Notes under the pieces: generated by a model
What the model saw: the letters and a program-made list of their open reading frames with translations, nothing else
Databases searched by the model: none
What the model was told of the DNA's origin: nothing
Shown: piece after piece, positions 1 through 52,467 of the stretch
Position numbering within the stretch: the stretch's first letter is position 1
Layout: every line of letters begins with the position of its first letter
Program-made: the position numbers and the translations under genes
Sequence record: PZ379545.1
Length of the DNA: 52,467 nucleotides
Origin: a phage
Reading direction: 5' to 3' (one strand)

Positions 1-39
<39 letters not shown>

Positions 40-293
40 TTTTTTATTCTTAATTTGTTTCAATATTAATGAGACTAAAATTCGTAACAAAGCTACGAGA
101 CTCGACTTGTTACAATATTATAATTTTTATTTTTGGGTCGGCGGGGAGGGGAAGCCCAACATCCCTATCGGGATAAATACGGTCCCTTAACCAACTTTTT
201 CCAGCCTATCGGCTCAATTCCAAAACCATAGTAGGCGCTACGCTTATGAGTCAAGGTCAAGACAGCACGCTGTAAGAATGTGCTTATCTCTCC

Positions 294-310
294 ATTAGTT
301 GATTGTGAAT
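294..310 (+). promoter_or_regulatory. Candidate phage-type promoter motif (ATTAGTTGATTGTGAAT) upstream of the RNA polymerase gene
   Basis: Variant of a ~20 nt motif recurring in intergenic regions across the window. Confidence 0.35.
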
Positions 311-373
311 TGTGTAATGGCTACGCAAGCCTAATCCGTTTCAGTTAGAACTATACACAATTTGGAGACTATC

Positions 374-2488
374 GTGACTAATGAAGAATATCGTGCACTG
401 GCTGCTGATGGCGCTCGCTTGAAAGAAGAAGGCCACGGTTGGAAAGACGTGCTTGATACAATGGACCGTTGTAACCAGATGGTTGATGAAATCACCTCCG
501 CTACACAATCTGAAACTAAAACCGAAACTAAATTGGAGACTCGCAAAATGACAACTATCACAACTCAAACTATCAAATCCGTTGTTCCTGCTATCACCGC
601 TCTGGTATACCGTGCTAAAGAGAAACAGAATTACATGCAGCCTCAGACCTGTGCTATTGCTGCCCTTGCTATCTTCAAGATGCTGACCTCATTCACTCGT
701 GAAGATGTTGTACCAGCCATCGCTATGGTTGAACTGGCATCTGGTGCTATTGCTGATGCTAACCGTTACAACAACGACCTGAAAGCAATGCACTATGTTG
801 ACCCAGCTATCAACCTGATTGGTCTGGCTAAACACTTCGGTTTCATCACCATGAACGAAGATAAGTCATTCCAGTTGACCGAAGCATGGATTGAGCTGGT
901 CACAACTAAAGAGACTAGCATCCCGTTAACAGAACGTGTCACCACTGAAACTCGTCGTAAGCCTTTCGTTAAAGGTGGCAAGGTTAAGCCATCCAAGACT
1001 CTGAAAGCTGCAATCGAATTCCTGCAAGATACTGAGTATCATGTTGATGCTCAAATGGTTCAAGTTATTCAGTCCATGATTGAACAACGTACCTACGGTG
1101 GTTTGCAGATGCCAGAAGCTATCCAGACTGAACTTCATGTTTGGAACAATGCTGTAGCAATGGCTGGTCAGGATACTCTGTTCTCTGACTACTTTGCTGA
1201 TAACCGTGGTCGTCTGTATCATGTAGCATGTGCTGGTCCTAACCCACAATCATCTGACTTTGCTCGTTGCTTGTATTCTCACAATGTTGAGAACATCGTT
1301 AAGAAGTTTAACGAAGATGGTTCTACAACTCTGGCATACAACATGTTCATGGCTGAGCTGGAAGATATTTCTGGTGGAGACTGGTGTTCTGCTAAACGTT
1401 TAACTTATGTTGCTCAGAATCCTGCTGGTTCACTTGCTCGCATGATGAACATGCCTAAAGCTGAACGTCCTTCCAAGCCATTCACTTATGTTCGTCTGGC
1501 TCTGGATTGGTTCAAGTTTGAGACTACAGGTGAGTGCGATTCTCGTGTAGGCTTTGGCTTAGATGCTAAATGTTCTGGTACTCAATATCTGGCATTCATT
1601 GCAGGTAACATGGAAATGGCTCGTGCTACAGGTCTGGTTGATTCTGAGACTAAAGCATCTGACCCATACCAGTTGAGTCTCCGTGAACTGTTGAAGCTGC
1701 TGGACAAGTCTTCAATGAAACCTTCTGTTGAAATCATGGAAGAGTTCTTGAACCCTAAAGCTGGTCGTAAGTTTATCAAAACTCCATACATGGCTATTCA
1801 GTATGGTGGTGGTAAAGCTGCTTTAACTGGCTCTTCTGACTTTATCTCTTACATGACTGCATCTCTCCAGATTCCAGTTGAGAAAGCAGAAGCATTTGCT
1901 GAACTGTGTGTGGAAGCAATCCATAACGCATTGGGTGCTAAGATTAACATGTTCATTGAGAAAGCTGCTGATGCTGCATATCAACGTTGTGTTGAGCTTA
2001 ACAAGGAATACATCACCTATAAGCACACTGATGGCCAGGTTGTAATGAAGCCTTGCTTCCCATCTCGTGAAATCTGTGATGCATTCAGCATTCGTGTTGA
2101 CTCTCAAACTCGTGTTATCTTTGGTCAGATTCAGGAAGAGAAACCTTGGACCATTCGTGAATCCAATCCAACTAAAGAGGAATTCAAGCGTACTTTCGTA
2201 GTCAACTATATTCAAGGTATTGACGCATTGGTTGCTCGTACTGTTGCTGTTAAAGCTAAAGAAGCTGGTCTTCGTGGTTTCACTTCAATCCACGATTGTT
2301 TCCGTTGCTGCTTAGCTGATGCTCCACGTATGATGGAAGTTATTCGTGCAGCATATGTTGAAATCTTTGTAACCAACAATCAGTTTGAGAACTTGTCTAA
2401 GCAGATTGGTGGCATCAAGATGTATCATGAGAACATCGTAACTGAAGAGCTTCTGATGAGCGAACACGCTTACTACTTCTGTCAATGA
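374..2488 (+). CDS. T7-like single-subunit DNA-dependent RNA polymerase, short N-terminal region
   Basis: Translation carries the ssRNAP catalytic motifs as read against T7 RNAP from memory: DAKCSGTQY (motif A), RKFIKTPYMAIQYGGG (motif B), FTSIHDCF (motif C). GTG start at 374 with GGAG 6 nt upstream; the ORF track starts at TTG 362. Confidence 0.85.
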   Translation: MTNEEYRALAADGARLKEEGHGWKDVLDTMDRCNQMVDEITSATQSETKTETKLETRKMTTITTQTIKSVVPAITALVYRAKEKQNYMQPQTCAIAALAIFKMLTSFTREDVVPAIAMVELASGAIADANRYNNDLKAMHYVDPAINLIGLAKHFGFITMNEDKSFQLTEAWIELVTTKETSIPLTERVTTETRRKPFVKGGKVKPSKTLKAAIEFLQDTEYHVDAQMVQVIQSMIEQRTYGGLQMPEAIQTELHVWNNAVAMAGQDTLFSDYFADNRGRLYHVACAGPNPQSSDFARCLYSHNVENIVKKFNEDGSTTLAYNMFMAELEDISGGDWCSAKRLTYVAQNPAGSLARMMNMPKAERPSKPFTYVRLALDWFKFETTGECDSRVGFGLDAKCSGTQYLAFIAGNMEMARATGLVDSETKASDPYQLSLRELLKLLDKSSMKPSVEIMEEFLNPKAGRKFIKTPYMAIQYGGGKAALTGSSDFISYMTASLQIPVEKAEAFAELCVEAIHNALGAKINMFIEKAADAAYQRCVELNKEYITYKHTDGQVVMKPCFPSREICDAFSIRVDSQTRVIFGQIQEEKPWTIRESNPTKEEFKRTFVVNYIQGIDALVARTVAVKAKEAGLRGFTSIHDCFRCCLADAPRMMEVIRAAYVEIFVTNNQFENLSKQIGGIKMYHENIVTEELLMSEHAYYFCQ

Positions 2489-2529
2489 TATTAATTGGTC
2501 AAGGATGACCACAAACTTGGAGACTTATA

Positions 2530-2730
2530 ATGAATACCATGCAAATCAATCAAATCGAAAACTGTTTCAATCCTCATCACACCTGTGACATGAGTGATTT
2601 ATCTCGTCCTACAGTGGAGGAGACTAAAGACTTCTTAGAATTGTTGGCAGAATATAAACAAGAGTCGCATGTATTATTGCACGCATTCTTGCATAATTCT
2701 GGATACTTTGATACAGAGATACCGTTCTGA
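2530..2730 (+). CDS. Hypothetical small protein
   Basis: 66-aa ORF, ATG preceded by TTGGAGAC RBS-like motif; followed by a terminator hairpin. Confidence 0.55.
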   Translation: MNTMQINQIENCFNPHHTCDMSDLSRPTVEETKDFLELLAEYKQESHVLLHAFLHNSGYFDTEIPF

Positions 2731-2735
2731 TACTT

Positions 2736-2758
2736 GGGAGCTTCGGCTCCCTATTTTT
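2736..2758 (+). terminator. Rho-independent terminator (GGGAGC-UUCG-GCUCCC plus U tract)
   Basis: Perfect 6-bp GC-rich stem, UUCG tetraloop, then TATTTTT. Confidence 0.7.
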
Positions 2759-2806
2759 GTTCTAATTAATCTTAGAGCTGGCTTCAATATTGTAGCCATC
2801 TGTAAC

Positions 2807-2823
2807 ATTAGTTGGATGTGAAG
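2807..2823 (+). promoter_or_regulatory. Candidate phage-type promoter motif (ATTAGTTGGATGTGAAG)
   Basis: Best match to the recurring intergenic motif. Confidence 0.45.
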
Positions 2824-3264
2824 TAAAAGAATACGGAGAAATATTCCGCATGTCATGTTGAATCATTCTAGAAACATTCAGCATGTCAGCTTTGAGTTAC
2901 AGTGTTGTAATGATGTGGCAATCATTGAACTCCCTAGGTAGGCCACCTACAGTTCCAGCAACCATGGCAAAGAGTAGGATTATATACTTCGAAACTTGTA
3001 CTTCACCTATAGCATGTCTATTAGTTTCAATCTTGGTTCGCCACCTAGTAAAGTGCAATCTGGATTCAATCCTAGCTCAGTGCACAAAATAGCGGACAAC
3101 CTGTTACTCCTATTATCAAGGCCCACCCACAAGCCGGGAGATAACTTTTACAAGACTGGAACTTTTGGACATGCTTCTTCTTTTCGAAGTAAATTCGATA
3201 ACAGAGAAGAGTCGGAGCAAAGCCTCTCGTTTTCACGCAGAAGCCGCCCCGAATTTGAGCAACA

Positions 3265-3664
3265 AATATTGTGGCAATATTGCTACAGTATGGCATGTAA
3301 ATATTGCAACAAATCGGCATGTTAGAATGTGGCAGAATTGTTAGAGGACTAATCACCTCGAAGATACAATCGTCTACCAATCCGGCATGTAGATTTCGTT
3401 GCAGTATTTGTGCCAATTTAAGCATGTAATATTGTAACAGGTTCGTGCTAACCCGCATGAATACTGGCTTCCAGCCAAGCGAAGGCTTTATCATCGCATG
3501 TAATATTGTGACAATATTGGGATAAAACCCTTTATTTAATTAGTTTTATTATGCTGTACATGGTCGGTTTTCCGTACCTGCTTGCTCCAATCTTAATGTG
3601 CCAAATACATCAAGTATGGGAGTAAACCTGTAATTAATGATGCATGTTTAATTGTGACAAAATT
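3265..3664. repeat. Array of at least six AATATTG-N3-CAATATT-like palindromes, several preceded by GCATGT
   Basis: Perfect palindromes at 3265-3281 (spacer TGG) and 3502-3518 (spacer TGA); imperfect copies near 3276, 3301, 3428 and 3648; GCATGT at 3293, 3317, 3385, 3422, 3496, 3642. Region has no convincing ORF. Confidence 0.7.
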
Positions 3665-3712
3665 CGTCTATTTGGCAGATGAATTGGTTGCAATTAAGCA
3701 TGTCCATTTATC

Positions 3713-3729
3713 ATTAGTTGCATGTGAAT
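3713..3729 (+). promoter_or_regulatory. Candidate phage-type promoter motif (ATTAGTTGCATGTGAAT) ahead of the early gene block
   Basis: Motif match at the end of the non-coding repeat region. Confidence 0.4.
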
Positions 3730-4000
3730 AAGACCAAATCTCTGTAAATTCTGCTGAAATTGTGTGACAGATTTTAGAGAGATTATGTCTCCAAGCTAAT
3801 CATTGTAGTTTTCGGCACTTGTTGTGTCACATATAGTCTGTGCAAAAGGTGTGGTTTGCAGGAGTGCAAGAGCTTCGCAATACTAGGAAGTAACCGAGAG
3901 CAGCACACACAGAGATGCTATATAACTCCCTACAACTTTAAGGTGGATTGAGGTAAGACAAGACCTCCACAATCGTTCTGTAGGGAGTTTTCTTTTAACT

Positions 4001-4261
4001 TTGGAGAATAAAATGGATACTGTAATTAAAGCTGCTTGTTTTAAAGACCTGCCAGATGGTCAAATCTTCACTGTTCGTTCTGTGAAGTGGATTAAAGTAA
4101 ATGAGTCAGACAAGTACAATGCTGTAAAGTTCTTTGATTCAAGCAAAGCATGTACTTTTAGCGACAATATTGTTGTCAATATTGAAGTCGAATTAATTCC
4201 TGATGACGAAGATGTTGAAGTGACTCTTCGTAACACTGCTGGATATAATGAGGGATTCTAA
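4001..4261 (+). CDS. Hypothetical early protein with acidic C-terminus
   Basis: 86-aa ORF, first gene after the repeat region, GGAG RBS. Confidence 0.6.
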   Translation: MENKMDTVIKAACFKDLPDGQIFTVRSVKWIKVNESDKYNAVKFFDSSKACTFSDNIVVNIEVELIPDDEDVEVTLRNTAGYNEGF

Positions 4262-10939: not shown

Positions 10940-11009
10940 TTCCAGGCTGTTCCGTCGAAGTGCCAAGCGGGTTTTGTACTCGCATTGGCCTTCGGCTTAA
11001 TTCTGAAAC

Positions 11010-12135: not shown

Positions 12136-12440
12136 TGGCTCGCAAAACATTGAAGCAAAAACTTCGCAAACAACTTCGCCAAGCCAAGGTGCAGTTGAAC
12201 GAAGAGCATAACCAAGCAGGGCATGTAATCAATTATGAATTACAGGCCATGCAAGCAGTTGCCTTAGCCCACGGCTTAATGGCAGCATTGATTTCTGCCA
12301 AGAATGTTTTGGGTGATGACCCACGTCTTAAAGAAATTGAAGAGCAGTGCCAAGCTCGTATTGCTCAGTGTTATTTGGCATTAGTTGAAATGGGATTCTC
12401 CCATGAAGATGCCAACGCTCGAATTATTAAAGGCCACTAA
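12135..12440 (+). CDS. Hypothetical basic helical protein
   Basis: ATG at 12135 in a TAATG overlap; 101 aa. Confidence 0.5.
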   Translation: MARKTLKQKLRKQLRQAKVQLNEEHNQAGHVINYELQAMQAVALAHGLMAALISAKNVLGDDPRLKEIEEQCQARIAQCYLALVEMGFSHEDANARIIKGH

Positions 12441-13574: not shown

Positions 13575-14468
13575 GTTGCTGATGGCAAACTTGAGAGACT
13601 AAGCTAAATCGATCTGGCACGCACTGGAAGATTTCCGGTACTGCCTTGAACCCATTCCAGAGTGAGTGGGCTTCAATGAGCATTCTTGTGATTAGAGTTG
13701 GGAGGTAGGCCGATGCCCAAGCTCGTGGCCCAGACAAGAGTGTTCATTGAAGTAGTTTTCTGAGTCTTACGACGGGCCTAAGCTGCCTGAAGTTATTGCG
13801 ACTGTTTTATTCATTTAAAATAAATGCAAACGATTCTGAAATGCGAGTTGCAGCTTAATTAAATTTAAGTTCTCTCCGTGGTCTTCCAATCCCATGTAAC
13901 CAAATTTGGCGCATTGTGGCTTCGAGATGTGATTAATAAATCGGAGCAATAATTAATTTGTATTCTGCGATGCAAAGCAGGCTTAAGTCCTCCAGTGCGC
14001 GTGGGGATGTGACAGAGTACAAACTTAATTATGCAGTTGGATATTTCTAGAGGACGGACGAGCACACTGGAATGTCTTCAATTGGTTTAGTGTGAGAAGC
14101 TATGCTAATTTGAAACGTAACTCCTTGAGGAAGTGCTCCTCTGGATTTCCCTCCTCACAGGAATCTCAAACCTGTGGCAGCGACTTCGAAGCTGCACTGC
14201 GTAACCTTATTCGCTTTAAGTGAATTGCCCTGAGCATGGAAATAAACTGCTCAAACCAATGATGCCCATAACGATGGGATAAGTTAGGTTGCCTGTTGGT
14301 ACTTGGGTTCAACACCTGCTTGCACTCGCAAAGTAGTGCCTCGTACCTGAGATGAAGTGAGTCGGGACCATCAATCCCACGTTATGTCAAAACACAGTAG
14401 GCGACTCACAGATTCTACAAGCCTCGCAGTTCGGGAAAACCTGCGTTACCAAAACCCACACCCTATTC

Positions 14469-14564
14469 GGACGAGTAGCTCAGAAGGTCTGCTCCAGAGC
14501 TTAGTCAGGTAGAGCAATCTGTTAGACAGATGTGTCGTTGGTTCGAATCCAACCTTGTCCACCA
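14469..14564 (+). tRNA. tRNA-like element with encoded CCA; anticodon arm unresolved, possible pseudo-tRNA
   Basis: 7-bp acceptor stem (GGACGAG / CTTGTCC, one G-U), perfect T-arm (GTTGG-TTCGAAT-CCAAC), discriminator A and CCA. D-arm halves TAGCTCAG and GGTAGAGC are split by about 24 nt; best anticodon hairpin has a 5-nt loop. Confidence 0.4.
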
Positions 14565-34082: not shown

Positions 34083-35531
34083 ATGTCAATTCCAATTTCT
34101 GACTTAGTTCAGGTTGATATTGCAATCTCTCCGAACGCCATTGCTACTGATGGGTTTGGTCCGCTCCTGTTCATGAGCAAAGAGTTTGTTCCGACCGTTG
34201 ACGTGTATCCGGTCCGTTCGTATTCCAGCCTTAAAGAAGTTCTCGCAGACTTCCCAGGTGGCGAGATTGCCAAAGCTGCTACAGCATGGTATTCCCAGAA
34301 GCCGACTCCGAAGACTTTCCTGGTTGGTGCTATCAAGTACGATACTCTGACTCCGGCAACTCCTGCCACTGTAACTGCTGCAACTGCTGCTGTTCTGGCA
34401 ACCATTAAGCTGGAAACTGCTGCCACCCTGCAACTTAGTGTTAGCGGTGTTCAGTATGTTACTGACCCAATTGACTTCTCTGCTGCTGCTGACTTTGGCG
34501 AAGTTGCTACACTAGTAACTGGTGCATTAGCTGCTGTAGGTGCTGGCGTTACTGCAACTCAAGAGGCTGGCAAGTTTAAGCTGACTTCTTCTGCAACTGG
34601 TGTTAACGCAACCATTAGCAACATCGGTGGTAAAGTTGGTGAAGTCCTGAAGCTGCAGTCTTCCGACAATGCTGTTACTGTTAATGGCAAGAACGAACTG
34701 TCTATCTCCACCGACCTGGCAACTATTGCCGATGCTCCGTTCAACTTCTTCTACGTTGGTCTGGACCGTCAGTATCGTGGCAAGTCTACTCCGGTTGACA
34801 ACCAAATGTCTGTTGCTAAATGGTGTGAAGCCTCTGGCAAAGTATTTGGCTGGGCTGACAACGATGCAAACATTCTGATTGCTGGCACTAATAACAGCTT
34901 CCGTCGTGCGAAGAATCAGAACCTGCGTAACACCTTGTGTGTTTATGACGCATCTGTGAACGGCGACGAATATCCAGAAGTTTCTATCCTGGGTCGTGCA
35001 TCCACTGTTAACTTCAACGTTGCAAACTCCGTCCTTATTCTTGCATACAAGAAAGGTCCAGGCATCTCCACTGCTGACTTGTCTTCCGGTCAGGTAAGCG
35101 CACTGCTCGCTTGTGGTGGTAACGCATTTATCTCTGTTGCTGGCAACACCATGTTCTTCAACGGCCGTATGGCTGACGGGACTTGGTTCGATTCAGTACA
35201 GGGCGTTGAATGGCTGACTCAGAAAGTTCGCCTGAACGTGTTCAACTTGTTCTACACCTCCACTACCAAGATTCCTTGGACGGACACTGGTGTAGCAATG
35301 GTTAACCAACAAGTAACTCTGGCGCTTGAACTAGCTAAGACCAACGGCCTTATCGCTCCGGGCTATGATAACGAAGGCACCTTCTACCCAGAAGGCTACA
35401 AAGTTATCTCGACTCCGTTGGAACTCTTGCAGTCGCAGAAGGGTGAACGTATTTGGGAAGGTACTTCCTTTATTGCTATCGGTTCCGGTGCAATCCAGGG
35501 TGCTGTAATTACTGGCAACTTCATTCAGTAA
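34083..35531 (+). CDS. Tail sheath protein (contractile tail)
   Basis: 482 aa, Ala/Thr/Val/Gly-rich, followed by a 151-aa tube-like gene. Confidence 0.65.
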   Translation: MSIPISDLVQVDIAISPNAIATDGFGPLLFMSKEFVPTVDVYPVRSYSSLKEVLADFPGGEIAKAATAWYSQKPTPKTFLVGAIKYDTLTPATPATVTAATAAVLATIKLETAATLQLSVSGVQYVTDPIDFSAAADFGEVATLVTGALAAVGAGVTATQEAGKFKLTSSATGVNATISNIGGKVGEVLKLQSSDNAVTVNGKNELSISTDLATIADAPFNFFYVGLDRQYRGKSTPVDNQMSVAKWCEASGKVFGWADNDANILIAGTNNSFRRAKNQNLRNTLCVYDASVNGDEYPEVSILGRASTVNFNVANSVLILAYKKGPGISTADLSSGQVSALLACGGNAFISVAGNTMFFNGRMADGTWFDSVQGVEWLTQKVRLNVFNLFYTSTTKIPWTDTGVAMVNQQVTLALELAKTNGLIAPGYDNEGTFYPEGYKVISTPLELLQSQKGERIWEGTSFIAIGSGAIQGAVITGNFIQ

Positions 35532-35540
35532 GGGTGAACA

Positions 35541-35996
35541 GTGAAGCAATATTCGTTTTATAATACAGACCTCCTGATTGATGGTGCTCGTGTAGACGGC
35601 TTTCAGGCTGGGCAATCTGTTATTACGGCACGCTACAACGTGCCACAACACGTTCCTGTAATGGATGCATATGGCAAACTTGCTGTGGCAACCACGGCTG
35701 ACCAGTCTGGGGTAATTACTTTCCCTCTGCTGCAAACTGCTGACTGGAACGAAATTCTGTATCAACGTGCACAGCTTACTCGTGCAACTGGTTTGTCTGG
35801 TAACAAATCCTTGTGGGAACCTTTGCAGATTCAGTTGGTGGATAAGATGGGTGACGTTCTGGTTAACGGTGTTAACGGTGCAATCCTGCAACAGCCTGCC
35901 ATTGTTCGTGGTGTAACCTTTACATCCAACATGTGGGCTATCTTTGTAGAGCGCCTCACCATCGTAACTGGTCAGTATCCAGAAATCGGCGTATAA
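35541..35996 (+). CDS. Tail tube protein
   Basis: 151 aa, GTG start with AAGGGTG RBS, directly after the sheath gene. Confidence 0.6.
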   Translation: MKQYSFYNTDLLIDGARVDGFQAGQSVITARYNVPQHVPVMDAYGKLAVATTADQSGVITFPLLQTADWNEILYQRAQLTRATGLSGNKSLWEPLQIQLVDKMGDVLVNGVNGAILQQPAIVRGVTFTSNMWAIFVERLTIVTGQYPEIGV

Positions 35997-36638: not shown

Positions 36639-39600
36639 ATGGCTAATAACTTAAAAGATTTAATGAGAATGTCTGAAGCCGAATTGATTGGCTTGGGTGC
36701 TCAATATGGTCTGTCATTCAATCCAGGTATGCGCAAACGAGATATGGCACAGCAACTTGAATCAAGTGCTGCCTCTGGTTGGATGGAAACAAATTCACAG
36801 CTTATGGAAGAAACCTATACAGAAGATGATGGCATCTCTTATGGCACTTCCGACATGATTTCAGACTCAGCCCATATCGCACAAATGATTTCTGGTGCTG
36901 GGCTGACTGAAACATTTCATGCTGCAATGAACGGTCCAAGTCACCATGTAGAAGCTGTACATGCCTACATGGAGAAACTAGGTGTGTCCACCGATGATGT
37001 GTGGATGCACATGCCTAAAGCAAACCCAAACAAGCCGGAAGGGCATTGGGGAACGCTTAATGCGTACATGCGTGATACGCTGGCAGGTCATCAAGATATA
37101 ATGCCGGAACTTCCTGGACATTATACAGGTGACATTATGGGCGAATACTCTACAAACCGTGGAGATATTGCCAAATCTATGGGCTACCTTGCTCATATGT
37201 ATGTTGACCGTCAACAATATGACGACCCAGACCGCTATGCACGAGATGTTTATCGTGTAGCCAAACGTTTAGAATCAGAATTACCGCAAAACTTCCGTGA
37301 AGTTGCTGCCGTATCTGCAATGAATGTAGGTAATAAGTCGGGGCCGAGAGTTTCATACATGGATTCATTGCCGCAACTTGGCTCAGAATCTATTGTTGGT
37401 GATATTCAGCATCCTCGACAACCTCTTAACGCATCTGGCCTACCATTAGGTTCTATGGGTTCTGGCATTAAGCCCGAATATTCTTTATCTGCATCCCTTT
37501 CTGGTTCTCCAGGTTGGTCTGATGCAAGTAAATCGCTGTACCAAGATGTATCTGGTGTGGTTAAGTCTGCTGCACAGGTATATGCTGGTGGTTCAGAACG
37601 AGGAATGAATGCATATCGTACTCAATCCTCTGACCGAGATTTAATTCTTGACTCCGCTTCTCGTTATACAGACCTTGCAGATGCTCGCTCTGGTTATGAC
37701 AACCTCAAGAAAGATATTGGGGATGACCCTCGTTACTCTGGTGCATCAATTCGTAGTGTTCTTGAAAATGCTCACCAGTATAATGAGGCAGAAGTAAGCA
37801 AGACATTTGACCCTGCTGAACGTTTAAGAAATACTGGACCTACTGAACTCAGTACATCCAATGAGTTTACGGCAAATCTAAATGAACCGACAAGTTGGAA
37901 TTCTGCAAGGGATAGAAGAGAGTCTATTGCTATTGCAAATCTCGATAGTGCTGGTGCTGGACAGCCTAGTTCGGTTAAATACCACAATGCACTCGAACAA
38001 GGTACGCAGGAGTGGCTTGATTTTCGTAAGCAGTACGATATTACTGGCTCTACTATTGGTGATTATCTGGGCCACAACCCCGCAACCAATAATAGCCCAA
38101 TACATACAATGGGCGAGAAGATTGGCCTCACAGTAAGAAAGGATTCTCCACGAGCACGTGAGAACTTTGAGCGTGGTCATAGGCTGGAAGCATGGGCCAG
38201 GCCAAGAGTTGGTGAGAAGTACGGGGTTGAGATAACCGAAACTGGCGCAATCACTAACGATAACTATCCTGGCATGATGTACTCGCCAGATGGATTAATT
38301 GGTGATGACGCTCTGTGGGAACATAAGGCTCCAAACAACTTTAAAGATTTGGAATCAACTCCCAACTACATGGACCAGATGCAACTTGGTATGCATTTGA
38401 GTGGTCGTAGTCGTACCCTGTTTACCCAAACTGTTGGCGAAGAATCTCGTAGCCAGTGGGTCGATGCTGACCCAACGTGGTTCGAACGTAACAAGAATAA
38501 GATTGCATCCTCACAAGCACGCATGAATGCTGGTCGTGAGTTTATGGAAAGCTCTGACCTTGAAGGCAAAGACCTTATTAATGCAACTCGTGAAGTTATG
38601 TCCGGTGGTGGCATCTGGGGATACCAAACTCGTGACCACAGAGATGGTGAAGGGTACACGGCTGGTAAGCGTGGAATGGCAAAGTACAGTGCTGCTGCTG
38701 GCACTGATGATGACCCGTTCTTAAGAAACCGTACCGATGCTGGGATTGGTGCTGCTACAGCCTCTGCTGTTGGCGCTGATAGCACAACTGGCAATGACCT
38801 GATGGCTGTGTCGGTTAAGAAAGGTATCCTCGCAGCACAGGAAGAAAACAAACTTCGTGGTCAGGATGCAGATTTCGGTGGTGGCGACAGTGGGCGCTCA
38901 GGCGGCTTCTGGGACAACATTGATGCTAGTAGCTATGGTATTAGTGGTGGCGGTTCTGGTGGCGGTGGTGGACGTCGTGGGTGGCAAGCTGGTGGCAGCT
39001 TCGGTGATGACTTTGGTCGAATGGGTGGGGCATTAGCTGCTGGCGTAGCTGGTGGCAGTATTGGCTCTTTATCCAATGGCGCTATGAATGCCATGATGAT
39101 GACTCCGTGGGGTCGTGTCGCTGGTATGGCTATTGGAGCTACCCAAATTGGTAACGAAGCTCTGGAAGGTCTGAATGACTTCTATGGTAACTCGTTAGAT
39201 GCTGGTGTGAACAATCCTAACGCATACTCTTCCATGACTCAGGGCTTGGAGATGTTAGGACTCAATTCACAACAAGCCAACCGGCTGAATCAAACCACAC
39301 ATAGTGCCTACAATACCCTGCTAAATGGCGACCCCAGCGGCGCTGTGAACATTGTTCAGGGAACCCGTGGCCTTATCACAATTGGCGACATTCGTGCGGC
39401 ACAGGGCGACCCTGTGGCCTTAGCGCGGGTCATGCGTGAACGTGGTCAGGAACGGGGCTGGAGTCAGGCTCGTATAGCTGGTGCAATGCAAATGGCTGGC
39501 CTGGACGGTATGGCTCGTGCCTATGACCGTACAGAATACAGCATGGGCGAGGCTGAGGCGAACGTTCAGCGTGGGGCTGACTCAAACTATGCCGAAGGCG

Positions 39601-40328
39601 TTGCACAGCTAGGAATCGCGCAGACGGAGCGTGCTGGCGTACTGCCTGGTTACGCTGTTCCGCAAGCTGCAATCTCATACGGAAGCACCTTTATTGAGGC
39701 AGGCGGTGACGCAGCCAGAGTGATGCGTGTGGCCTCCAACGGTACAGCCGATGCAGCACGTAATGTTTACGACTTTATCGCAGGAGAAGAGTCAGGGAAC
39801 CGCGATTTGAACGCAGATGGTTCGGTGGTTACATCGCCAACTGGTGCTAAAGGTCGTATGCAGGTTCTTGATTCAACTTCCCGTGACCCTGGCTTTGGTG
39901 TTCGTCCTGCCAAAGATAACTCACTGGAAGAACGTGCTCGCGTTGGTCGTGACTACTATGATGCAATGCTCAAGCGATATAATGGTGACGCAGAGAAGGC
40001 TATGGCTGCGTATACTGATGGTGCCGGAACTGTTGATGATGCTATCAATAAGCACGGAACTGATTGGCTCAATGCTGTTCCTTTGCAGGCTCAGAATCGT
40101 GTCAAGAAATATCGTGAGTGGGCTAATCAGGGTGATGCAATTGTTGAGGGTGCTGCTGGCTTTACACGTAATGGATTGTCTTATGGACAAACACAACCAA
40201 CCGTGGTTAACGTGGAAGTTAAGGCAACCGTAAACAACAAGCAAGCCTCTGCAACCGTATCAACTCCAAATGGACAAACTGTTACCCAAACAATCAACAT
40301 GGGCAATGGTGCAATGGAACGCAGGTAA
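36639..40328 (+). CDS. Tail tape measure protein with Gly-rich segment and C-terminal lytic transglycosylase (SLT-like) domain
   Basis: 1229 aa; Gly-rich stretch (GGGSGGGGGRRGW...); SLT-like IAGEESGNRDL...GAKGRMQVLDSTSRDPGFG near the C-terminus. Confidence 0.7.
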   Translation: MANNLKDLMRMSEAELIGLGAQYGLSFNPGMRKRDMAQQLESSAASGWMETNSQLMEETYTEDDGISYGTSDMISDSAHIAQMISGAGLTETFHAAMNGPSHHVEAVHAYMEKLGVSTDDVWMHMPKANPNKPEGHWGTLNAYMRDTLAGHQDIMPELPGHYTGDIMGEYSTNRGDIAKSMGYLAHMYVDRQQYDDPDRYARDVYRVAKRLESELPQNFREVAAVSAMNVGNKSGPRVSYMDSLPQLGSESIVGDIQHPRQPLNASGLPLGSMGSGIKPEYSLSASLSGSPGWSDASKSLYQDVSGVVKSAAQVYAGGSERGMNAYRTQSSDRDLILDSASRYTDLADARSGYDNLKKDIGDDPRYSGASIRSVLENAHQYNEAEVSKTFDPAERLRNTGPTELSTSNEFTANLNEPTSWNSARDRRESIAIANLDSAGAGQPSSVKYHNALEQGTQEWLDFRKQYDITGSTIGDYLGHNPATNNSPIHTMGEKIGLTVRKDSPRARENFERGHRLEAWARPRVGEKYGVEITETGAITNDNYPGMMYSPDGLIGDDALWEHKAPNNFKDLESTPNYMDQMQLGMHLSGRSRTLFTQTVGEESRSQWVDADPTWFERNKNKIASSQARMNAGREFMESSDLEGKDLINATREVMSGGGIWGYQTRDHRDGEGYTAGKRGMAKYSAAAGTDDDPFLRNRTDAGIGAATASAVGADSTTGNDLMAVSVKKGILAAQEENKLRGQDADFGGGDSGRSGGFWDNIDASSYGISGGGSGGGGGRRGWQAGGSFGDDFGRMGGALAAGVAGGSIGSLSNGAMNAMMMTPWGRVAGMAIGATQIGNEALEGLNDFYGNSLDAGVNNPNAYSSMTQGLEMLGLNSQQANRLNQTTHSAYNTLLNGDPSGAVNIVQGTRGLITIGDIRAAQGDPVALARVMRERGQERGWSQARIAGAMQMAGLDGMARAYDRTEYSMGEAEANVQRGADSNYAEGVAQLGIAQTERAGVLPGYAVPQAAISYGSTFIEAGGDAARVMRVASNGTADAARNVYDFIAGEESGNRDLNADGSVVTSPTGAKGRMQVLDSTSRDPGFGVRPAKDNSLEERARVGRDYYDAMLKRYNGDAEKAMAAYTDGAGTVDDAINKHGTDWLNAVPLQAQNRVKKYREWANQGDAIVEGAAGFTRNGLSYGQTQPTVVNVEVKATVNNKQASATVSTPNGQTVTQTINMGNGAMERR

Positions 40329-52433: not shown

Positions 52434-52467
<34 letters not shown>

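Follow-up and report, generated by a model that had tools for sequence, protein, structure and literature searches.

The pairing of a myovirus tail with a T7-type RNA polymerase (RNAP) has been known since 2008, when it gave the phiEcoM-GJ1 paper its title, as cited in PMC12842549 and PMC6266442. It was also reported in PMC8762354, in PMC6989608 and in the ICTV profile (PMC12842549), and it is a published hallmark of the Chaseviridae. The criteria for this family are double-stranded DNA of 52-56 kbp, a single-subunit RNAP and genes on one strand (PMC12842549). Here we describe the polymerase gene of a phage DNA of 52,467 bases (record PZ379545.1), given as one strand; the whole stretch is called the window and all coordinates refer to it. 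The gene occupies 374-2488 on the + strand. A first-pass annotation of this DNA had seen in it a T7-like RNAP with a short N-terminal region, in a phage which also encodes sheath and tube proteins, and had likened it to the phiEcoM-GJ1-type phages; it missed that such phages form a recognised family. We consider it about 80% probable that 374-2488 is the early, minimal T7-family RNAP of a Carltongylesvirus to which an N-terminal add-on of 58 amino acids (aa) has been fused.

The polymerase and its trimming

The open reading frame (ORF) is open from TTG 362 to the stop at 2488. The GTG at 374, six bases after the Shine-Dalgarno sequence GGAG (364-367), gives a product of 704 aa, the TAA stop being included in the coordinates; TTG 362 lies inside this Shine-Dalgarno sequence. 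An in-frame TAA at 332-334 (+ strand) bounds the ORF upstream, and therefore no start upstream of 362 is possible. This rules out a start further upstream, which the first-pass annotation had named as something that could overturn its reading.

From its motifs, a Pfam match and a structure model the ORF is predicted to encode a T7-family single-subunit RNAP with a complete catalytic core of palm and fingers. The Pfam family RNA_pol (PF00940) matches the 704-aa product over aa 381-679 with 70 bits (cut-off 22, E=2.3e-19). A plain sequence search of the PDB gave T7 RNAP as the only match, and a weak one (E=0.004). When a profile of 64 homologues was used, hhalign aligned window residues 211-665 with T7 317-836 at 98.2% probability (E=5e-14); the T7 residue numbers were checked on the T7 sequence from NC_001604. 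The catalytic motifs, all on the + strand, fall in the T7 register. The DxxGR motif (D276-R280, 1199-1213) pairs with T7 D421/R425, and motif A, GFGLDAKCSGTQ (1550-1585), carries the catalytic D397 which pairs with T7 D537. Motif B, RKFIKTPYMAIQYGG (1766-1810), holds R465, K469 and Y477, the latter two pairing with T7 K631/Y639; motif C, SIHDCF (2285-2302), with H640 and D641 pairs with T7 H811/D812, and the C-terminal Phe F702 with T7 F882. D276, R280, D397, R465, K469, Y477, H640, D641 and F702 are invariant across the 64 homologues, and G478 is conserved in at least 90% of them. The first-pass annotation was thus right in claiming all catalytic motifs and in placing motif A at about 395, compared with about 537 in T7.

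An AlphaFold2 model built on the 64-sequence alignment has a mean predicted local distance difference test score (pLDDT) of 89.3 and a predicted template modelling score of 0.81, and it is confident from residue 61 to the C-terminus. The best matches of the model in a Foldseek search of the PDB are T7 RNAP complexes (3e2e_A, E=6e-19, template modelling score 0.56, 15% identity), followed by the yeast and human mitochondrial RNAPs (Rpo41, POLRMT). Alignment and structure prediction, which the first-pass annotation had proposed as checks, both have T7 RNAP as their best match, the hhalign probability for N4 gp16 being 94.9%. The mitochondrial enzymes share the polymerase fold and rank next after T7, but they are much larger and have long N-terminal extensions and obligatory initiation factors; the extension in the window is 58 aa and unrelated to theirs.

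The short length is, by comparison of homologues, a family-wide trait, a scope which the first-pass annotation missed. The enzyme conserved in the family comprises 646 of the 704 residues and begins at ATG 548; in phiEcoM-GJ1, flopper, ST32, Bp7 and others the annotated RNAP consists of this core (548-2488, + strand) alone. When 5.8 billion proteins were searched, 113 RNAP clusters came out, mostly of 626-650 aa. In the alignment of 64 sequences the median length is 644 aa and the Asp of motif A stands at a median position of 346 (minimum 321); the tail after motif C has 63 residues in 27 of the 64, all the closest relatives included. The orthologue of Mangalitsa (QEG07803.1, 704 aa) is 95.3% identical over all 704 aa, and those of flopper (QHR68766.1, 646 aa) and phiEcoM-GJ1 (gp01) are 93.8% and 92.1% identical over the core. 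The Carltongylesvirus orthologues occupy the same site, as the first gene after nrdB and the terminal-repeat boundary, and they share the promoter-like motif described below as well as the myovirus structural module.

T7 RNAP (883 aa; PDB 1cez, 3e2e, 1qln) resembles this enzyme in fold, catalytic motifs, C-terminal Phe and, by prediction, a hairpin at the position of the specificity loop, at an identity of ~15-19%. The window enzyme is 179 aa shorter than T7 RNAP and its core 237 aa shorter. Read from the hhalign register, the deficits relative to T7 are 106 aa from the start to the thumb (164 aa for the conserved core), 39 aa from the thumb to DxxGR, 22 aa from motif A to motif B, 9 aa from motif B to motif C and 8 aa in the C-terminal tail; between DxxGR and motif A the window is 5 aa longer. 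Motif A does lie 140 residues nearer the start, as the first-pass annotation had calculated, and to this extent its estimate of an N-terminal region ~140 residues shorter stands. The conserved core, however, is ~198 residues short before motif A, and by this register the trimming hits thumb and fingers besides the N-terminal domain, a part which was missed. The thumb is truncated (residues ~216-275, 1019-1198, + strand): window residues 211-276 (65 aa) align to T7 317-421 (104 aa).

The N-terminal domain of the core has ~150 aa compared with ~316 in T7. This compact domain, residues 59-215 (548-1018, + strand), is predicted with a pLDDT of 89 and contains 5-6 helices. It also has a short beta-hairpin, and a basic coil in it, RRKPFVKGGKVKPSK, is conserved. 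The hairpin, ITM-NEDK-SFQL (residues 158-168, 845-877, + strand, from predicted secondary structure), is in the model a candidate counterpart of the T7 intercalating hairpin, or else the wing of a winged helix. In a forced alignment to T7, which is not significant (0.6%), the two N-terminal domains are collinear and the hairpin stands opposite the T7 intercalating-hairpin region. We infer from the model that the domain may be a cut-down T7-type promoter-binding domain with a winged-helix-like core of helix-helix-helix-hairpin. By the domain boundaries of T7, the compact domain would be without the first ~70 residues of T7 and the region of subdomain H. A second beta-hairpin, at residues ~578-597 (2105-2164, + strand), has predicted strands 580-583 and 592-595 and is aligned by hhalign with T7 739-770, the specificity-loop region; the base-contacting residues are not conserved. 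Alignment and model suggest that a specificity-loop-like hairpin has been retained in the chasevirus RNAP.

The N-terminal add-on

Residues 1-58 (374-547, + strand) are, on the comparative evidence given below, a formerly separate upstream gene which has been fused onto the polymerase. They are clade-specific and do not belong to the ancestral enzyme, which the first-pass annotation missed. In the model they form two helices (residues 3-46, pLDDT ~65-72) and then a disordered linker rich in Thr, Glu and Lys. Among relatives the add-on is a clean indel of 174 nucleotides (nt) flanked by the 9-bp direct repeat TTGGAGACT, which holds a ribosome-binding site. Copy 1 of the repeat (362-370, + strand) contains the GGAG 364-367 for GTG 374; copy 2 (533-541, + strand) contains the Shine-Dalgarno GGAG 535-538 for the ancestral ATG 548 and also supplies the codons Leu-Glu-Thr. 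The add-on is present in 13 records representing ~10 phages (among them Mangalitsa, JL1, Bp10, 2KOFFS, SKA49 and TH23/26/28/33/37) and absent from ~33 records, among them phiEcoM-GJ1, flopper, ST32, Bp7 and the Yersinia PYps phages. In the phages without it the polymerase begins at an ATG equivalent to window 548 and has 646-648 aa. The upstream start of the window is a weaker GTG, whereas the same position is ATG in 9 related phages.

It should be noted that start and gene calls for this RNAP are inconsistent between GenBank records. In Shigella phage vB_Shi_2KOFFS (L019 374-2548) the protein is annotated as 724 aa, 20 codons longer than in the other add-on phages, a start which the TAA at 332-334 makes impossible in the window, and in PYps23T no coding sequence is annotated across the polymerase gene.

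The nine add-on copies compared are all 174 nt long and in frame. Their variable sites are distributed 5/1/18 over the three codon positions, and the protein identity is 95-100% at ~90-92% DNA identity; the fixed frame, the codon bias and the protein identity together argue that the add-on is translated. A stand-alone homologue came from a phmmer search of 1.84 billion representative proteins: P0114, a protein of 62 aa, is 47% identical over residues 1-51 (E=5.8e-6). Its gene lies on a metagenomic contig (L016), directly upstream of a gene, at L016 722-2647, for a 641-aa polymerase which is 71.6% identical to the window core. A gap of 72 nt separates the two; in it are a stem-loop, another promoter-like motif and a ribosome-binding site. 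Three states of the add-on are thus found among relatives: a separate gene, a fused gene and no gene. No family in Pfam or PHROGs matches it significantly, the best being phrog_14095 (E=0.009).

A neighbour-joining tree of the polymerase core, rooted on the P0114 contig and bootstrapped 200 times, bears on the history of the fusion. Neither the carriers nor the non-carriers are monophyletic in any of the 200 bootstraps. There are two sub-clades without the add-on, with 88% and 76% support, and the second is sister to the carrier TH23 at 97%. This implies either two or more losses of the add-on, for which a deletion between the 9-bp repeats is a plausible route, or recombination. The add-on would be an accessory module, functionally linked to the polymerase and dispensable.

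The ancestral start signal, GGAG, nine bases and ATG 548, is unchanged in every fused genome, and the last 12 codons of the add-on contain 1 variable codon compared with 20 in the first 46. Since this signal has been kept, along with a near-invariant stretch of codons, while a GTG is found upstream, it is plausible from the sequence that both isoforms, of 704 aa and 646 aa, are made.

Two other explanations of the length of the gene can be weighed together. According to one of them ATG 548 is the sole true start, and 374-547 is a leader or a translated remnant which adds nothing to the enzyme. The signal kept in all add-on phages and the nearly invariant last 12 codons speak for it, as does the fact that phiEcoM-GJ1, flopper, ST32 and ~30 other records have their start at ATG 548, with the GGAG nine bases upstream of it, and that the upstream start in the window has been weakened from ATG to GTG. 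A mere leader would, however, be at variance with an insert which is fixed at 174 nt and has no stop codon between 374 and 548 in 10 of 10 genomes, with the bias towards third codon positions (5/1/18) and with a protein identity of 95-100% at ~91% DNA identity; moreover, a ribosome which starts at 374 must make the fused protein. We regard a sole start at ATG 548 as quite improbable. According to the other explanation the short length is an artefact, the ORF being a truncated or frameshifted version of a normal polymerase of 880 aa, or the contig being mis-assembled. The one circumstance which could support it lies in the assembly of the window, which is circular and was opened within a homopolymer; both ends carry exactly 31 T. 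But the same length and the same ends recur in 113 independent sequence clusters and in dozens of isolate genomes, the model is confident from residue 61 through the C-terminus, and all the closest relatives are among the 27 of 64 sequences in the alignment which share the 63-residue tail after motif C. An artefact is refuted by these comparative data and has next to no probability.

The genome and its ends

The window is an essentially complete genome of a Carltongylesvirus (Chaseviridae), and the likening to phiEcoM-GJ1-type phages was right. It has 52,467 bases, its first gene is that of the RNAP, and the main ORFs of gene size (those for RNAP, replication, packaging and tail) are on the + strand. 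Its first 2.6 kb match 66 phage records at DNA identities up to 91.6%; those examined belong to the Chaseviridae, subfamily Cleopatravirinae, and mostly to Carltongylesvirus. The central 25 kb are 85-88% identical over 88-92% of the length, and the queried regions as a whole are 85-92% identical over 88-96% to Mangalitsa, JL1, Bp10, GJ1-type and PYps phages. With a species threshold of >95% identity over the genome, and identities below 95% to every record found, the phage is probably a new, separate species of the genus. One of the matching records, PP952070.1, 'Staphylococcus phage Pel53' (Staphylococcus hyicus, 53,660 bp), is 85% identical upstream of the polymerase gene, where it stands beside E. 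coli and Yersinia chaseviruses, and it is also among the matches of the structural region; its host label looks doubtful.

The tail sheath protein is encoded at 34083-35531 (+ strand), with a match to PHROG 'tail sheath' at E=3e-93 and to solved sheath proteins at E=7e-15 and below. The tail tube protein, at 35541-35996 (+ strand), matches tube proteins of solved structure at E=1e-7. There are also matches in the window for the baseplate hub and wedge, the portal, the terminase and the capsid. Sheath, tube and baseplate thus confirm that a contractile tail is encoded beside the polymerase, and the thought that the tail genes had been misassigned and the phage was a podovirus can be put aside. 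A 1229-aa tail protein (36639-40328), for which the GJ1 annotation is tail fibre and T4 gp5 analogue, carries an SLT transglycosylase domain at its C-terminus. Internally, at residues 458-590, Pfam finds a YqaJ-like recombinase/exonuclease domain (43 bits, cut-off 22, E=5e-11), which is oddly placed in such a protein. ARAGORN found no transfer RNA (tRNA) gene over the whole window; in phiEcoM-GJ1 a tRNA-Arg is annotated at 14456-14550, and relatives are polymorphic for the presence of tRNA genes (PMC8762354).

A direct terminal repeat of 2,339 bp has been shown experimentally in PYps23T (PMC8762354). In the Mangalitsa record a terminal repeat of 3,234 bp is predicted (1-3234), corresponding by homology to window 172 to ~3400; the length among Carltongylesvirus is thus ~2.3-3.2 kb. 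No long direct terminal repeat was found as a duplicated end in the window, which is a collapsed circular assembly. In the relatives the whole polymerase gene lies inside the repeat and the packaged DNA therefore holds two copies of it; the records of PYps23T and JL1 have two matching places for the RNAP region. Exactly 31 T stand at window 1-31 and again at 52437-52467. These runs look like the k-mer overlap of a circular assembly broken in a homopolymer, and the length of the tract may be an artefact; at the matching site of the poly-T, relatives such as flopper have only T9-T11 runs. A non-coding block at ~137-215, upstream of the polymerase gene, is strongly conserved (GGGGAAGCCCAACATCCCTATCGGGATAAATACGGTCCCTTAACC...CCTATCGG) and is kept even in L016, the relative with the 72%-identical polymerase. 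Position 1 of the Mangalitsa record, the left end predicted by PhageTerm, corresponds to ~172 in the window and lies within this block, which may be a genome-end or packaging signal. The block has no unusual RNA folding.

A shorter relative of the polymerase occurs in a bacterial chromosome. In Pseudomonas brenneri (CP122540.1, 3123141-3145039; L015 1-21899) a polymerase of 632 aa, P0097, 34% identical, is encoded in a 6.26-Mb chromosome, with myovirus baseplate and lysozyme genes upstream and a tyrosine integrase ~7 kb downstream adjoining the host genes ahpC and ahpF. From its gene content this locus looks like an integrated, apparently temperate chasevirus-like prophage; the family is described as lytic by ICTV. 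Proteins like P0097 were also seen in a 4.8-Mb contig of Hafnia alvei and in a contig of P. laurylsulfatiphila.

Putative promoters, possible cofactors and the minimal enzyme

A 17-mer with the consensus CATTAGTTGGATGTGAA recurs in the window. At up to 3 mismatches it has 7 matches, all on the + strand, compared with a mean of 0.17 in shuffled sequence. The exact consensus is found at 2806-2822 (+ strand); the copy CATTAGTTGATTGTGAA at 293-309 (+ strand), which has two mismatches, stands 65 nt upstream of the start of the RNAP, and relatives have kept it. Further + strand copies are at 3712, 7242, 11009, 11150 and 13143, the one at 11009 having been added by a position-weight scan, which also gave weaker copies at 12379, 16734, 20837, 25853 and 40365. 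Most of these promoter-like CATTAGTTGG motifs lie between ORFs. In the ATTAG block and the length of 17 nt they resemble the -16 to -12 part of K11 and SP6-type promoters, a likeness which we take only as a lead. The same motif is annotated in the GenBank record of GJ1 (EF460875), under the name 'putative phage promoter 1-9'. Similar promoter predictions have been published for PP101 (PMC6989608). The copy at 293-309 suggests that the enzyme has its own gene among those it transcribes, in contrast to T7 gene 1. T7 and the window phage are alike in that the RNAP is an early gene and that multiple copies of a ~17-20-nt promoter-like motif are on one strand; they differ in the motif before the polymerase gene itself, in the virus being a myovirus and, in the window's relatives, in the location of the gene within a terminal repeat of 2.3-3.2 kb (PMC8762354).

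A sigma-70 scan of 1-4200 gave fewer sites than shuffled sequences; upstream of the RNAP gene no site on the + strand was convincing, and the window counterpart of the 'putative host promoter' of GJ1 has, judged by eye, a degraded -35 element. No structured leader RNA was found upstream of the gene (folding z-score 0.08), and an Rfam search of the whole window gave no match. The scheme we propose is that host RNAP would start the expression of the phage RNAP gene. The phage RNAP itself would probably recognise the ~17-nt motif ahead of the + strand gene blocks, its own gene included. Its part would then be to amplify its own gene and to transcribe the remainder of the genome.

An alternative is that the enzyme is factor-dependent like N4 RNAPII or the mitochondrial RNAPs, and needs a phage or host cofactor to recognise and melt double-stranded promoters; the small upstream protein, fused in this phage, could be such a cofactor or a recruitment module. 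N4 RNAPII is a heterodimer of gp15 (269 aa) and gp16 (404 aa; PDB 6dt7), 673 aa in all, whose N-terminal domain and thumb are truncated. Without gp1 and gp2, which it needs, it binds only single-stranded DNA (PMC4496689), and its N-terminal domain is thought to recruit cofactors and not to bind promoters, as PMC7145618 reports with reference to Molodtsov and Murakami (2018). The chasevirus enzyme has less than half of the T7 promoter-binding domain and its core (626-648 aa) is even smaller than N4 RNAPII, and a functional link is suggested by the gene being on its own in one genome but part of a fusion in others. On the other hand T7 RNAP (98.2%, E=5e-14) is closer in sequence than N4 gp16, and no similarity was found to gp15, with which the N-terminal domain has no significant hhalign similarity either. 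Homologues of gp1 and gp2 were not found in the window by tblastn at E up to 10, although analogous factors are possible. A specific kinship with N4 RNAPII is rejected at the level of sequence. The N4 enzyme is split into two subunits, one with the thumb and DxxGR and the other with palm and fingers, while the chasevirus RNAP is one chain, encoded by one unbroken ORF both in the window and in each of the 113 homologue clusters. Furthermore, the N4 middle promoter is short and AT-rich, whereas the recurrent motif is specific and ~17 nt long; a hairpin resembling the specificity loop seems to have been kept, and the small protein is altogether absent from most relatives. Factor dependence is in our opinion possible but rather unlikely.

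Some points weigh against the early, minimal T7-family RNAP with a fused add-on which we prefer. The enzyme activity of the chasevirus RNAP is deduced from sequence and a model, and the start codon in use has been assigned by sequence alone. The N-terminal domain has no significant similarity to that of T7 by hhalign (probability 0.6%), and the ICTV profile states that chasevirus promoters have not been identified (PMC12842549). P0114 is the only stand-alone homologue of the add-on found in searches of proteins, phages, IMG/VR and the metagenomes of the Joint Genome Institute (JGI): for separate copies, tblastn of the phage collection gave only the 13 fused records, IMG/VR a single Mangalitsa-like contig and the JGI metagenomes none. 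The tree is a neighbour-joining tree of one gene, in which recombination could mimic repeated loss. Finally, the add-on is not essential, because most members of the family are entirely without it.

A T7-type polymerase in a contractile-tailed phage is textbook knowledge for the Chaseviridae and is not new. What we add is the fusion origin and the repeated loss of the add-on, the quantitative picture of the minimal enzyme and the surviving compact domain which looks like a promoter-binding one. A more far-reaching proposal, which we put forward only tentatively and think unlikely to be right as a whole, is that the 58-aa module is an unrecognised polymerase-associated factor and that the core of 626-648 aa is the smallest single-chain T7-family enzyme which reads a ~17-nt double-stranded promoter unaided. 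The module might tune initiation, or it might tether the minimal polymerase to a host or phage partner. If the core does work unaided, the greater part of the N-terminal domain of T7, with its refolding subdomain H, would be dispensable for specific initiation and for the switch to elongation. A cofactor-free RNAP would define the minimal T7-type promoter-binding domain and would be a compact candidate for in vitro transcription and for orthogonal expression systems. With the module fused, separate or absent, the family offers a natural experiment, both for finding a partner of the polymerase and for testing whether two isoforms are made from one gene.

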